This document shows positions 34,030-38,661 of a stretch of DNA of 38,661 nucleotides, piece by piece. Position numbers and translations under genes: made by a program. The DNA is taken from IMG/VR virus record IMGVR_UViG_2684623189_000006; one strand, written 5' to 3'. Source of the stretch: a virus. Taxonomy: Duplodnaviria > Heunggongvirae > Uroviricota > Caudoviricetes. How positions within the stretch are numbered: position 1 is the stretch's first letter; each line of letters starts with the position of its first letter. Under the pieces are notes generated by a model that made no database searches, was not told where the DNA came from, and worked only from the letters and a program-made list of their open reading frames with translations.

Positions 34030-34557
34030 TCACAGCAAACCGAATGAAGCACCGAGGCCAGTCACGGTATCAACTGCACTCGCCATCGCAGGATTAGCCT
34101 GTAAACGGGCCTGCAATGAAACAGCCGCCAGCGCCATCAGTCGTGTTACAGAATTAATGCTGCTGATGGCATCACGACGACCGGCACTGGTTTTTACATC
34201 GCCAGATACCGCACCTGCAGCAACACGCCCGATCTCTGCGGTTGCACTCATGACGTAATGTGGCAGTTTCTCTTTTGCCACCTCATTAATCGGTACACAT
34301 GGCAGACAATGAATCTGTGCCAGAAAACCATCTACCAGCGTTGAATCTTCAGTCAGATCGGTAAGCAGCCAGATTTCTGGTGCGGTTAATAAATGAGGTT
34401 GAGCTGGGTTCAGCTTGTTCCGCAGAATCTGCACATTCATGCCAGCACGTTCTGCCAGTTGCACCAGGTTGTGGCGCAATGCGAATGCACGACAGGCTTC
34501 ATCAAAATGTGGATGTTTGGAAACTTGGTAATCAAACATATTCGACATCTCTGACAT
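34030..34557 (-). CDS. cII: CII-like lysogeny establishment activator
   Basis: Matches coliphage 186 CII as I recall it ([23 protein letters not shown]...[28 protein letters not shown]...). The start may be the internal ATG at 34539. Confidence 0.8.
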
Positions 34558-34571
34558 AACCCAAAATGGAA

Positions 34572-34793
34572 CTAGTTAATGCTCAAATTGCATTCAGCGA
34601 GTGCATCAACAGTCATTGCTGCGATATTGATCATCACCTTTTCTCGCTTTTTATCCTTACGGAGACGATGGCGAATAAGACGTCCATCAGCCAGCATGTC
34701 ATTGATGGTGTCGATAGATAAGCCAGTCAGTTCGCTGTATTTCTCAATAGAAACAGATGGAACAGCTAAGGTGATTGAAATATGTGGAGTCAT
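34572..34793 (-). CDS. apl: Apl/Cox-like excisionase and switch regulator
   Basis: A 73-aa HTH protein (EKYSELTGLSIDTINDMLADG). Its ATG at 34793 has a GAGGA Shine-Dalgarno, and it is the first gene of the rightward operon, divergent from cI. Confidence 0.7.
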   Translation of the reverse strand: MTPHISITLAVPSVSIEKYSELTGLSIDTINDMLADGRLIRHRLRKDKKREKVMINIAAMTVDALAECNLSIN

Positions 34794-34918
34794 GATGCAA
34801 GATTCCTCGATTAACATGATGCGTGGTAACTGGTGATTAACACCGTCAAGTTCACTTTCTCACACATTAATTCTTCATTTGAGAAGTGTCAACTCAATAT
34901 TACTCAAAGGCGTACTAG

Positions 34919-35797
34919 ATGAATTTCAAAAACGGAGGACAGGCAGTCATAACGCGCATGCTTGAAGCGTATGGATTCAAGACGCGGCAAGCCCTATGTG
35001 AACAGTTCAATGTATCTGCAAGTACTATGGGAACGCGCTGGATGCGTGACGCATTTCCTGCTGACTGGGTAATTCAGTGTGCAATTGAAACAGGAGCATC
35101 TATAGAGTGGCTCTCATTCGGAAAAGGCGTGCCATTTCCTAAGAATACCGAAGTTCCCGCTAAATTAGAGGAACCAGCATCATTGGTTCAATATGTTCCC
35201 AAAGCCACCACCAACGAGAACCCAATTGTGAACCATCCAAATCTGGATTCAGGTGGACGTAATGCGATAAACAGGCTAATGGAAGCGTATGGCTTTAAAA
35301 CAAGACAAGAACTTGCCGACCATTTGAATGTGTCTAAAAGCACAATGGCGAATAGATACTTGCGAGACACATTCCCAGCTGACTGGATCATAAGATGCTC
35401 GTTGGAAACAAGAACTTCTCTTTTATGGTTAGCAACTGGGCGCGGGCAAAAACTTGGAAGCGAAGAAAGTGAAGCTTTAGAAATTCCTAAAGTAAAACTT
35501 ATTGACAATCAAATTTTCGATGCTGGTCATTTATTGATAGATAAGTCCCTGCTTCCTCATTTTAATGATTTACTCGCAATTGAAGACGAACATTGCATAA
35601 ATATTGCACACATGAATAAAGCTAATGTTGAAGACGGAAGATGGATTGTTCAATACCAAAATAATTTCAAGTTAAAACAAATTTTTCTATTACCTGGAGG
35701 CAATCTTCGAGTAACAGACGATGATTTAACATTTGATTGTGAAAAAGAAGATATAAAATTAGTTGCCAAAATTTTCTCACAGTACCGTACTATTTAA
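34919..35797 (+). CDS. cI: CI-type immunity repressor (186 CI family) with tandemly duplicated N-terminal DNA-binding domain
   Basis: Two about 60-aa repeats (MLEAYGFKTRQ...ETGASIEWLSFGKG and LMEAYGFKTRQ...ETRTSLLWLATGRG) followed by a 186-CI-like C-terminal domain. Confidence 0.75.
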   Translation: MNFKNGGQAVITRMLEAYGFKTRQALCEQFNVSASTMGTRWMRDAFPADWVIQCAIETGASIEWLSFGKGVPFPKNTEVPAKLEEPASLVQYVPKATTNENPIVNHPNLDSGGRNAINRLMEAYGFKTRQELADHLNVSKSTMANRYLRDTFPADWIIRCSLETRTSLLWLATGRGQKLGSEESEALEIPKVKLIDNQIFDAGHLLIDKSLLPHFNDLLAIEDEHCINIAHMNKANVEDGRWIVQYQNNFKLKQIFLLPGGNLRVTDDDLTFDCEKEDIKLVAKIFSQYRTI

Positions 35798-35812
35798 TCT
35801 TGAGGCATAGTA

Positions 35813-36841
35813 ATGGATTTTATAAAAAAACTCGAATTTGGAAATTATACTCTCCGTTTTGGTGATGATGTTTTGCTAGACTATTATGATGAAATTGTTT
35901 TCCCCTCTTTTTTGGAGATGGCAAACATCCGCAGAATATCTGACAAATCAGAGTTCTTTTTCATTGATACTGAATGCGTCATACTTGACGAAGAAGCAAC
36001 ACCCCCAGTACTCGGAATTAAAGGTCGGATTATTAAGAATACATTATTAACCAGAGAACAAGTATTTGATGGTGCTGATTTGGTTGAAGATCATCAAGAG
36101 CTTGAAACAGCCCCGAGCTCTTTCTTTCTTCTAATATTAAACACTCACAGATTAATTCTTTGCAAGGAAGTTAGTGGTGCTCCCACAATTCAAAACTTTC
36201 AGTCAACAAGTCAGTGTTTCTTAAACATAGAATATGAAAAATACATATCTCATTTATACGAAACCGCACAAGAAGAACGCAAAGAAAACCCTGACTTACC
36301 TCGAGTCACTAAAAAAAGCTTACGGAACGAAATCAAACGCCCGAAGCTAAGAATAACGCCGTTAACTGACAAACAAAGCCTAGAGCAATTTATTGATAAT
36401 TTTAATAAAATCCAAAATGTCTCAGTAAAACTTCTCCCTACAAATCAAGAAGAAATTGATAACGACGAATTTTGGGAGTCACTTGAAAGTGCCGGAGACG
36501 AAATGGGAAGTATTTCTACATCTATTCGCTTTTCAAACACCGATTCAGGCTTGAATCATGGTGCTGTTTTAGAACAACTCACATCAGCAACCAGATTGGC
36601 TAATTCAGGAATAAATATTAAAGGATATGATGACAATGGTGATATAATCAAAGGTAGCAATGATGACTTTGTTTTGTTAAGTGAGATGAATGAATTATCA
36701 AAGGATACGGTAGTAGCTGCAAATGAAAGTTATGAGCGGTATGAAAATCTTGTAGAAGAAGGTAAGATATCTCTACCCCGTTCTCTTTCACAAAAGACGA
36801 TTAGAATTATTAGCAATATATATGAAAGGTTTGGTCGATGA
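35813..36841 (+). CDS. Hypothetical protein (342 aa), AT-rich cargo gene 1 between cI and int
   Basis: Low-GC ORF with a GAGG Shine-Dalgarno and no recognisable family. Its stop overlaps the next start (ATGA). Confidence 0.6.
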   Translation: MDFIKKLEFGNYTLRFGDDVLLDYYDEIVFPSFLEMANIRRISDKSEFFFIDTECVILDEEATPPVLGIKGRIIKNTLLTREQVFDGADLVEDHQELETAPSSFFLLILNTHRLILCKEVSGAPTIQNFQSTSQCFLNIEYEKYISHLYETAQEERKENPDLPRVTKKSLRNEIKRPKLRITPLTDKQSLEQFIDNFNKIQNVSVKLLPTNQEEIDNDEFWESLESAGDEMGSISTSIRFSNTDSGLNHGAVLEQLTSATRLANSGINIKGYDDNGDIIKGSNDDFVLLSEMNELSKDTVVAANESYERYENLVEEGKISLPRSLSQKTIRIISNIYERFGR

Positions 36842-37518
36842 TAAATAAAATAGATGCTAAAGAAATAACCAAAGAGAAAAACCTTTGGGATGTTTACTTG
36901 CTCTGCAAACGGATTACTATTAGTACATTCCATATTTGTATTTTGCTCACAGCATCTATTTTTTTATTAACAAACTCTTTTTTTATTGAGAAGGATATGT
37001 CTCATTTAGTATCTGACATTAGAAACTGGGCTTTGATTGGTTTTAACTTTGCAGTGACAACCTTAGGTTTTCTCATTGCTGGTTTCACAATATTTGCAAC
37101 ACTATCCAAACCCGAGATGTTTCTTCAGATGATGTCAATACAACATAAAAAAACACAGATGCCCACGTTAAAATATAACTTTATGGCATTTATGAAAGTT
37201 TTCATCTCATTTATTACGTTTACTTTCATTTATCTAATAATAATTCTCTTTTGTCAAAAAGATGGAATAATTGGCAATATAATTGATTTATTTCCATATT
37301 CAAAATCGATAAAAGAATTAATTATTAAATTTGGATACTGTGTTATAGGGACTAGCCTTATTTACTTAGTGTTAGTAGTAAAGACATTTATTTTTAATAT
37401 CTACGCTATCATAATGAATAATATTCGTTGGGAGTTATACATTAAAAGAAAAGAACAAAGACTTTCCAGTAACAAAGAGACAATCAATAAAAACATAGAT
37501 GTAACTAAAATGCATTAA
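36838..37518 (+). CDS. Hypothetical integral membrane protein (226 aa, about 4 TM helices), AT-rich cargo gene 2
   Basis: Four long hydrophobic segments; translationally coupled to the upstream gene. Confidence 0.6.
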   Translation: MINKIDAKEITKEKNLWDVYLLCKRITISTFHICILLTASIFLLTNSFFIEKDMSHLVSDIRNWALIGFNFAVTTLGFLIAGFTIFATLSKPEMFLQMMSIQHKKTQMPTLKYNFMAFMKVFISFITFTFIYLIIILFCQKDGIIGNIIDLFPYSKSIKELIIKFGYCVIGTSLIYLVLVVKTFIFNIYAIIMNNIRWELYIKRKEQRLSSNKETINKNIDVTKMH

Positions 37519-37608: not shown

Positions 37609-38661
37609 ATGGCAGTACGAAAACTCACCACAGGGAAATGGCTTTGCGAATGTTACCCCGCCGGACGAAGTGGGCGTCGTGTGCGTAAACAATTCGCCAC
37701 CAAAGGCGAAGCTCTGGCTTTTGAGCGTCACACGATGGAAGAAACCGAATCAAAGCCCTGGCTGGGCGAATCAGTGGATCGTCGAACCCTGAAAGACGTG
37801 GTTGAGCTATGGTTCAAATTACATGGTAAATCTCTGACTGCTGGACAGCATGTCTATGACAAATTGCTGCTGATGGTTGACGCTCTAGGCAATCCTCTTG
37901 CAACCAATCTCACCTCTAAAATGTTTGCCCACTATCGAGATAAACGCCTGACAGGTGAGATCTACTTCAGCGAGAAATGGAAGAAAGGAGCCAGCCCGGT
38001 CACCATTAACCTGGAGCAAAGCTATCTAAGTAGTGTTTTTAGCGAACTATCCCGCCTGGGCGAATGGTCGTATCCAAACCCACTGGAGAACATGCGAAAA
38101 TTCACCATCGCAGAAAAAGAGATGGCATGGCTTACCCATGAGCAGATTGTTGAACTGCTGGCTGATTGCAAACGTCAGGACCCAATTCTGGCACTGGTAG
38201 TCAAGATATGCTTAAGCACAGGCGCACGCTGGCGAGAAGCAATAAATCTTACCCGATCACAGGTGACTAAATACCGAATTACCTTTGTAAGAACGAAGGG
38301 GAAGAAAAACAGAAGCATCCCTATCAGTAAAGAGCTTTATGAAGAGATCATGGCGCTTGATGGGTTCAATTTCTTCACAGACTGCTATTTTCAATTTTTA
38401 TCCGTGATGGAAAAAACGTCTATCGTGCTCCCTCGCGGTCAACTCACACACGTTCTGCGCCATACGTTTGCGGCGCACTTCATGATGTCGGGTGGAAACA
38501 TTCTGGCCTTACAAAAAATTCTCGGACACCACGATATAAAAATGACTATGCGTTACGCACATCTGGCACCGGATCATCTAGAAACGGCGCTCCGTTTCAA
38601 TCCTCTGGCAACGCTGCCAAGTGGCGACAAAGTGGCGGCAGCGGTTGGCATTACCCCGTAA
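37609..38661 (+). CDS. int: Tyrosine recombinase / integrase (P2/186 family)
   Basis: A 350-aa ORF with the C-terminal catalytic region ...LSTGARWREA...HVLRHTFAAHFMMSGG...LGHHDIKMTMRYAHL (R...HxxR...Y) and a GGAGGG Shine-Dalgarno. Confidence 0.9.
   Translation: MAVRKLTTGKWLCECYPAGRSGRRVRKQFATKGEALAFERHTMEETESKPWLGESVDRRTLKDVVELWFKLHGKSLTAGQHVYDKLLLMVDALGNPLATNLTSKMFAHYRDKRLTGEIYFSEKWKKGASPVTINLEQSYLSSVFSELSRLGEWSYPNPLENMRKFTIAEKEMAWLTHEQIVELLADCKRQDPILALVVKICLSTGARWREAINLTRSQVTKYRITFVRTKGKKNRSIPISKELYEEIMALDGFNFFTDCYFQFLSVMEKTSIVLPRGQLTHVLRHTFAAHFMMSGGNILALQKILGHHDIKMTMRYAHLAPDHLETALRFNPLATLPSGDKVAAAVGITP

Follow-up and report, generated by a model that had tools for sequence, protein, structure and literature searches.

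Our analysis of a 38,661-nt stretch of DNA from a virus of the class Caudoviricetes (IMG/VR record IMGVR_UViG_2684623189_000006; hereafter the window, at its full length) showed that its cI gene encodes a phage 186-type repressor carrying two DNA-binding heads on one chain. The protein belongs to the 186 type by its heads, its C-terminal domain (CTD) and its gene context, but it is a variant of that type, with two heads per subunit. Both heads are under purifying selection, and the gene is a mosaic. We consider it possible, with slightly less than even confidence, that it is a functional immunity repressor of a 186-like (Peduoviridae) E. coli prophage and that the two heads on each chain differ in specificity.

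The two heads were recognized by several methods. The 292-aa product matches the Pfam family PF07022 (Phage_CI_repr) twice, with a whole-protein E = 4e-59, and PF16452 (Phage_CI_C) at aa 188-285 (E = 2.2e-16). A domain hidden Markov model (HMM) places the heads at aa 6-70 (D1) and 112-176 (D2), in agreement with the two consecutive 186-CI-type domains that a first-pass annotation, made from the sequence alone, had located at about aa 10-70 and 117-178. The same annotation held that the copies share about half of their residues and diverged long ago, which the alignments bear out. The two halves of CI are 44% identical over 102 aa (BLASTP, E = 2e-31), and the 65-aa cores of D1 and D2 share 57% of their residues and 59% of their nucleotides; since their synonymous sites are also saturated, the copies are old. 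The supposition that 186 CI has a single head was likewise correct, because residues 9-186 of its structure (PDB 2FJR) align in a sequence search to CI residues 115-290 alone, that is, to D2 and the CTD (E = 1.3e-23). The Peptidase_S24 domain, responsible for autocleavage in LexA and lambda-type repressors, was not matched in CI by Pfam, and the C-terminal domains of LexA and lambda CI were only remote fold neighbours of the protein in Foldseek. An antisense open reading frame (ORF) of 106 aa inside cI (35188-35508, minus strand) came without supporting evidence and is probably spurious.

We predicted the structure of the single chain with AlphaFold2, using an alignment of 41 tandem homologues (mean predicted local distance difference test score, pLDDT, 78; predicted template modelling score, pTM, 0.45). 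The model contains two five-helix domains (aa 7-67 and 113-173) and a beta-rich C-terminal domain (aa 186-290). Block-mean pLDDT is 80-91 in D1 and remains below 50 across aa 75-106 of the linker. Foldseek relates the model to 2fjr_A (E = 8.8e-17), and the CTD superposes on 2fkd_A with a template modelling score of 0.90 normalized to the target and a root-mean-square deviation of 1.4 Å.

Two-headed CI proteins turned out to be widespread. Twelve complete E. coli chromosomes of unrelated origin contain the 3.5-kb locus at 98.5-99.9% identity, 4 IMG/VR contigs have it too, and the D1-D2 pair is present in 30 of 5,426 complete E. coli genomes (12 at 99% identity or more, 18 at 86-87%). A query from the main clade of tandem proteins retrieved 34 more E. 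coli genomes, including E2348/69, so that the architecture is present in at least 64 of the 5,426. When CI homologues were clustered at 90% identity and the best 120 of the 664 clusters with E <= 1e-5 were examined, 46 had two heads (291-330 aa), with hosts in E. coli, Klebsiella, Salmonella, Citrobacter, Enterobacter, Edwardsiella and Kosakonia. Tandem CIs are also encoded by sequenced Klebsiella phages, such as 4LV2017 and ST437-OXA245phi4.2, and by about 40 of the best 80 IMG/VR loci. At a clustering threshold of 50% identity, roughly a fifth of the best 150 representatives had two matched stretches; the six that we checked have two PF07022 domains and one PF16452 domain, and are only 35-45% identical to D2. 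In a collection with one genome per species, 2 of 80 loci were tandem. Two heads thus define a sub-architecture of the 186 CI family that is both common and ancient. The first-pass annotation had allowed that it might be the norm of this family, which it is not, but its frequency is far from negligible.

Our protein is annotated 'phage repressor protein CI' in RefSeq genomes, and tandem CIs carry only this name. A literature search with little coverage of papers in subscription journals found no description or experimental study of a tandem-head 186-type CI, and a comparison of 18 CI proteins published in 2011 does not mention the two-head architecture (PMC3448106). Some tandem cI genes are truncated and lack most or all of the CTD (L010, from Dryocola sp., 229 aa; L126, 237 aa; L128, 198 aa), and these loci probably belong to decaying prophages. 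One protein of the 50%-identity library (P0231, 340 aa) has four consecutive HTH_3/HTH_19 domains with a weak relation to the CI head, showing that multi-head Xre-type proteins exist beyond the 186 family.

Both heads seem to be kept by natural selection. Relative to the tandem loci L001 and L093, the ratio of nonsynonymous to synonymous rates (dN/dS) is 0.016-0.02 in D1, 0.11-0.12 in D2 and 0.31-0.47 in the linker, with a synonymous rate (dS) of about 0.34-0.48 in both heads. The helix-turn-helix (HTH) signature S-x-S-T-[LM]-x-x-R-[YW]-x-R-D-x-F-P is invariant, or nearly so, in both heads of the 41 tandem proteins. The low dN/dS and the preservation of this signature indicate that selection maintains both heads.

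The age of the copies might suggest an old duplication within the gene, as the first-pass annotation proposed, but the ancestry of the heads points elsewhere. D1 is 86-89% identical to the heads of single-domain CIs of 206 aa, against 57% to its own D2, and its identity to the D1 of other tandem lineages does not exceed 66%. When all heads were placed in one tree, the D1 of the window and of the sister clusters P0002 and P0003 nested inside the single-head 206-aa clade, and most other tandem proteins have a D1 of a separate clade, with an 18-aa leader (MSTQKFTFRH...) and an invariant helix region SQSTMANRYARD. D2 forms a group with its counterparts in other tandem proteins and with the 197-aa single-head CIs, being 82% identical to the heads of the latter. 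Furthermore, the 45 nt ahead of D2 are in register with the 5' end of single-head cI genes (MSTSKYPIGDDLAFE vs ATTNENPIVNHPNLD), and the 3' part of the linker is in register with the MSTSKYPIGDD-type leaders of single-domain cI. In the 326-aa tandem cI of locus L115, the corresponding stretch ahead of D2 (1819-1863, ATGTCAATATTAAAAGCCCCAAATGAGATC) has ATGTCAA at the start of this fossil, which we read as the former start codon of a single-head cI, overlapping the former -35 box of the pR promoter and followed by the leader operator, now in the middle of the ORF. The fossil leader indicates that tandem genes arose by in-frame joining of an upstream head to a complete cI. Together with the identity pattern of D1, it points to in-frame fusion, or head replacement, between heteroimmune lineages.

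A further exchange concerns the 3' half of the gene. The GC content is 0.50 in D1, 0.45 in D2 and 0.31 in the CTD, so the AT-richness noticed in the first reading is real, and to it we can add that this half is part of a separately acquired module, formed by the CTD and two cargo genes. In a sliding-window comparison with the tandem relatives L001 and L093, DNA identity is at least 87% from cII through D2, except in the linker (62-78%), and falls from about 90% to about 50%, the background, near +480 to +520 of cI. From this junction through both cargo ORFs, the window is 80-97% identical in DNA to the single-head locus L097. The junction coincides with the fall in GC content from 0.45 to 0.31 and accounts for the AT-rich 3' half. 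The CTD itself is 78-87% identical to those of the single-domain clusters P0004, P0005, P0007 and P0009 (Salmonella, Klebsiella aerogenes and Edwardsiella tarda), and only 24-26% identical to those of the closest tandem relatives, with which the block from apl through the switch, D1 and D2 is co-inherited. The gene is therefore a three-part mosaic, with a D1 of the 206-aa lineage, a D2 and leader of the 197-aa type, and a CTD exchanged with the cargo. The CTD and the two cargo genes (35400-37518) move as one module, unrelated to those of the closest tandem relatives. As single-head L097 has the same module, recombination at the boundary between head and CTD appears to shuffle cargo between immunity types.

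The two heads, different in ancestry, may read different operators, and the single-head relatives offer a guide to which ones. L004, a relative of D1, has four GGAAAGT half-sites at pR, among them the perfect palindrome ACTTTCCATTTGGAAAGT. The single-head relatives of D2 (L007, L008, L060, L063, L097 and L129) have a CCCAAWTG palindrome at pR and in the leader; this palindrome, AGTACCCAAWTGGGKAC, covers the pR start at -46 and recurs within the leader codons at +13. L129, whose helix region is identical to that of D2, has GTTCCCAATTGGGAAC at pR. The main tandem clade, whose D1 helix is SQSTMANRYARD, has TTCACAAAACGG-type sites at pR, at -34, -14 and +15, which resemble the ACCACAAAAYCG found at pR of single-head repressors with D1-like Q-type helices. 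Judging from these sequences, the main tandem clade seems to follow the same logic of heads and operators independently. A simple code from helix to operator was only partly informative, as KSTMANRYLR is associated with different operators in Xenorhabdus-type loci and in L129.

The switch of the window is of the 186 type, with cI divergent from apl/cox and cII and in the same orientation as int. The ATG that opens the longest apl ORF (34817) corresponds to AAG in the related loci L001-L003, and apl is called as 73 aa in related contigs; taking the conserved start at 34793 leaves a spacer of 125 bp between cI and apl. A scan of positions 34500-35000 for consensus promoters and terminators called nothing, and missed pR because its -10 box matches the consensus at only 3 of 6 positions. 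The -35 box is kept at the same position in all related loci and adjoins the cI start, like the annotated pR of 186. Between the two boxes lies W2, the candidate main operator. It is identical at 13 of 18 positions to the perfect palindrome of L004, which occupies the same place, and its right half is the right half of the 186 pB site, ATTCACGAATTGAGAAT. In the 45-bp block to which W2 belongs, the window and L001-L003 show 2 differences, against about 30% of positions in adjacent intergenic DNA. The flanking candidates are weaker: W1, inside the same block, has a left half that resembles a 186 B-type half-site (FR = ATTCACTTTATGTGAAT), and W3 matches GTACCCANNTGGGTAC at 12 of 16 positions, one of only 4 such matches in the window. 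The stretch of W3 has no differences among the window and L001-L003, which could be explained by the ribosome-binding site.

The candidate site for D2 is found elsewhere, inside cI. The palindrome GAACCCAATTGTGAAC scores 22.3 of 28.3 bits with a position weight matrix (PWM) and is its sole match near the switch. All 12 tandem loci that were scanned with the matrix gave a match, between +298 and +361. Of 33 unique tandem genes, 24 depart from the palindrome core at no more than two positions, and a subset carries a divergent variant. In the tandem loci scanned, the D2-type palindrome is absent from pR and is kept once, just ahead of D2. Among 27 unique tandem genes, conservation at third codon positions is 0.93 bit in the palindrome, 0.46 in D2 and 0.36-0.57 in the neighbouring linker, with 0.76 bit at the second codon positions of the palindrome. 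The encoded amino acids vary among tandem genes while the palindromic bases stay, which points to a constraint on the DNA itself. The record of phage 186 (L169, NC_001317) offers a parallel. At pR, three CI sites adjoin the start of cI, with TCTCCCAATTGAGAGA, of the A-type, in the centre; FL, FR and pB are of the B-type (ATTCAC-N5-GTGAAT in the GenBank annotation), and FL lies inside cI at +269..+285 (NC_001317 22726-22742), in codons of the interdomain linker (aa 90-95). Both types of gene would thus place a distal operator in linker-coding DNA, and GAACCCAATTGTGAAC is a candidate FL-like operator for D2.

Our results can be brought together in a model. The CTD would form dimers and probably a wheel of the 186 type, with D2 at the position of the single head of 186 CI and D1 on a flexible tether of about 40 residues. 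D1 would read the operators around pR (W2, possibly W1 and W3) and thereby set the prophage's own immunity; D2 would read the A-type palindrome within cI, at +299 from the ATG. In this way pR and the distal site could be bridged by one oligomer, much as pR and FL are by 186 CI, but with a different head at each end, and D2 might also repress incoming phages that have its palindrome at pR. This division of labour, D1 at pR and D2 at the intragenic site, is the best supported of the explanations that we considered, though our confidence in it stops a little short of even. More doubtful is the broader proposal that specialized heads share the two-operator-class task of 186 CI, so that a swappable D1 with its switch DNA sets immunity at pR, the conserved D2 reads an A-type palindrome in the codons that precede it, the loop from pR to this intragenic site is hard-wired on one oligomer, possibly with immunity to a second type of phage, and new immunity types arise in one step, when a foreign head and switch are fused in frame to an intact cI.

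Several observations weigh against the model. The AlphaFold2 prediction leaves undefined the geometry between D1 and D2 and between D1 and the CTD (pTM 0.45), and formation by the CTD of a wheel, a heptamer of dimers in 186, is assumed from its similarity in fold, which is compatible with such an assembly. The assignment of candidate sites to heads is inferential, by analogy with single-head relatives, and one of these, L011, has the helix of D2 and an operator, AGTTCTCATATTGAGATCT, that W2 resembles, so D2 could bind at pR too. The search for operators around apl and cI that had been recommended at the outset yielded W1-W3 and the intragenic palindrome as candidates, but no exact repeated 7-mer in the switch; the pR-proximal sites are degenerate, and W1 and W3 were found by eye. 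The 12-mer core of the palindrome, with at most two mismatches, occurs once genome-wide against about 1.5 occurrences expected, which is not significant in itself; what lends it weight is its homology, its position and the conservation of its codon positions, in a comparison of mutually related sequences. In the group with a LATRYM D2, the sequence ahead of D2 varies, so the covariation of helix and site is only partial. Finally, no convincing FR-like site was found at the apl/cII junction.

Other searches of the switch gave little. Strict palindromes of the 197-type or 206-type had only degenerate matches at pR of the window, and 186 B-type sites (ATTCAC-N5-GTGAAT) had 21 loose matches in the window, against about 15 expected, none of them at the switch. 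We considered CCCAAAATGG, at the apl/cII junction, as an FR-like site and rejected it: it is present in single-head and tandem loci of all immunity types, L004 included, which makes it uninformative and more likely the result of coding or ribosome-binding constraints. A generic repeat finder reported only short two-copy families of doubtful meaning in the switch region. Among them is an 18-nt repeat, 72% identical between copies 321 bp apart (34570-34587, AACTAGTTAATGCTCAAA; 34891-34908, AACTCAATATTACTCAAA), with one copy at the apl/cII junction, the place of FR in 186, and the other immediately before cI. The repeat may be an FR-like site or have arisen by chance.

Two other explanations, both unlikely in our judgement, involve DNA binding by both heads. 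According to the first, D1 and D2 of one chain or dimer would lie side by side on adjacent half-sites of a long asymmetric operator at pR, making CI comparable to a single-chain repressor of natural origin, in which cooperativity and the spacing of half-sites are altered. Two intact heads on a flexible linker would suit this arrangement, and so would the asymmetry of the pR-proximal sites of the window (W2, ATTCTTCA/TGAGAAGT), the conserved left half (TTCACA) and variable right half of the pR sites in the main tandem clade, and the resemblance of W2 to operators of relatives of both heads. Yet the size, the number (about three) and the spacing (20-30 bp) of the pR sites are those of single-head relatives, which have asymmetric sites as well (such as GTTCACAttttGAAATC in L015), and arrays of four half-sites were not seen. 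The length and sequence of the linker are poorly conserved among tandem proteins, which argues against a fixed head-to-head geometry, and the D2-type palindrome retained ahead of D2 would be left unexplained. The operator evidence fits two heads reading two classes of site better than it fits adjacent half-sites.

The second explanation, about as improbable as the first, is that D1 alone serves the switch, and that D2, lacking a target in cis, represses superinfecting 186-like phages with CCCAATTG-type palindromes at pR, the copy ahead of D2 being a mere fossil. The D2-type palindrome is indeed the pR operator of single-head phages co-circulating in the same hosts, and D2 is under purifying selection. 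Besides, D1 is polyphyletic and D2 with its leader is common to the sampled tandem lineages, as expected if new modules of D1 and switch were repeatedly placed before a retained D2 and CTD. However, the palindrome ahead of D2 has kept its third codon positions in a linker that has otherwise decayed, and its distance from pR is FL-like. This dual immunity and the model of D1 at pR and D2 at the intragenic site are not mutually exclusive.

It is very unlikely that one of the heads has ceased to bind DNA in favour of another role, for instance as an antirepressor's docking site or decoy, or in the regulation of oligomerization. In the full-length crystal structure of 186 CI the heads are packed in a way incompatible with DNA binding (PMC3675496), so heads can make protein contacts, but the HTH signature is kept in both heads of the 41 tandem proteins and both are strongly constrained. 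As for an artefact of sequencing or assembly, a recent duplication or a decaying pseudogene, nothing in this gene speaks for them beyond the truncation of a few relatives (L010, L126 and L128), and they can be dismissed, as the first reading had done for the artefact, given an intact ORF in 12 complete genomes of different hosts and in 18 more at 86-87% identity, the 4 IMG/VR contigs, copies identical at only 59% of their nucleotides with saturated dS, and strong purifying selection on both heads.

Comparison with known systems helps to delimit what is particular to this repressor. The CI of 186 and that of the window are alike in the fold of the HTH head and of the C-terminal beta-domain, in gene neighbourhood (int, cI, divergent apl, cII), in having pR abut the cI start, and in carrying a palindromic site within cI, some 270-300 bp after its ATG. 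They differ in the number of heads per chain, one in 186 and two, with different recognition helices, in the window; in the use of one head for both A-type (pR) and B-type (FL, FR, pB) sites in 186, where the window may divide the classes between heads; and in the two cargo genes that the window has between cI and int, unlike 186. Tandem CIs of other P2/186-like phages and prophages (4LV2017, ST437-OXA245phi4.2 and the E2348/69 prophage) have the same two PF07022 domains and PF16452 in 291-330 aa, and other tandem CIs have the same fossil leader and palindrome ahead of D2. They mostly belong to the SQSTMANRYARD clade of D1, whereas the D1 of the window is of the single-head 206-aa lineage and its CTD is unlike those of its nearest tandem relatives. 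Engineered single-chain repressors connect DNA-binding domains of the 434 repressor covalently through a flexible linker; they are artificial, and an oligomerization domain is missing from them. They share with the CI of the window two HTH domains per polypeptide, and both could in principle read asymmetric or composite operators, but the heads of the latter are natural, heterologous and joined to a domain that probably forms a wheel. In lambda CI (OL-OR) and in the wheel and looping model of 186 CI (pR-FL/FR), an oligomer bridges a promoter-proximal cluster of sites and a distal operator (PMC3675496). The same head is used at both ends of these loops; the CI of the window would use different heads.

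Neither product of the two cargo genes between cI and int had a match in Pfam, PADLOC or PHROGs; the 226-aa one resembles a membrane protein. Related loci fill this slot with an AAA_15/21 ATPase and a DUF4276 protein (L001) or with other unknown pairs (L003), and a defence hotspot between cI and int has been described in Vibrio K139-like phages (PMC9122126). The two ORFs are thus candidates for an anti-phage or moron function. The coordinates of these and of the other features are given in the table.

Table. Features of the cI locus and its surroundings in the window
Feature	Position	Strand	Description	Evidence
cII-like gene	34030..34557	-	lysogeny establishment regulator	PF06892, E = 3.6e-42
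apl/cox-like gene	34572..34793	-	excisionase and repressor, 73 aa from second ATG, divergent from cI	PHROG 575, E = 1.6e-28
W1	34849..34866	.	weaker candidate flanking site AGTTCACTTTCTCACACA, 21 bp from W2	hand inspection, without statistical support
pR (inferred)	34864..34892	-	-35 TTGACA 34892-34887, 17-nt spacer, -10 TAATGT 34869-34864	read by hand, positional homology
W2	34870..34887	.	candidate main CI operator ATTCTTCATTTGAGAAGT, between pR -35 and -10	position of L004 palindrome
W3	34900..34915	.	weaker candidate flanking site TTACTCAAAGGCGTAC, 29 bp from W2, overlaps cI ribosome-binding site	
cI	34919..35797	+	immunity repressor gene, 292 aa, D1-linker-D2-CTD	ORF, Pfam 2x PF07022 + PF16452
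D1	34934..35128	+	extra N-terminal HTH head, aa 6-70, recognition helix region VSASTMGTRWMRDA	domain HMM
Inter-head linker	35129..35251	+	aa 71-111, about 40 aa, predicted disordered	pLDDT, leader alignment
Intragenic palindrome	35218..35233	.	GAACCCAATTGTGAAC, 186 A-type core CCCAATTG, +299..+314 from cI ATG	PWM
D2	35252..35446	+	HTH head in canonical position beside CTD, aa 112-176, recognition helix region VSKSTMANRYLRDT	domain HMM
Recombination junction (approximate)	35400..35440	.	D2/CTD boundary, GC drops	identity switch L001/L093 to L097, GC profile
CTD	35480..35773	+	186-CI-type oligomerization domain, aa 188-285	PF16452, Foldseek
Cargo ORFs	35813..37518	+	two AT-rich ORFs, 342 aa (35813-36841) and 226 aa (36838-37518), between cI and int	ORFs
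int	37609..38661	+	phage integrase	PF24624 + PF00589

Overall, what is new here is the recognition of the architecture, its origin and a testable model; the system itself is not of a new kind. In practical terms the value is moderate: databases already contain many examples of the architecture with a generic label, and we expect a moderate interest among researchers of phage switches, to whom a concrete model is offered. In textbooks, the CI of 186 exemplifies gene control by a protein wheel on which DNA is wrapped and looped, and a natural two-headed version provides a direct test of how the number and the specificity of heads affect cooperativity, looping and immunity. Finally, the comparative data suggest a simple route to new immunity, by which a foreign head and its switch are fused ahead of an intact cI, with the oligomerization domain being exchanged along with cargo genes that are probably involved in defence.

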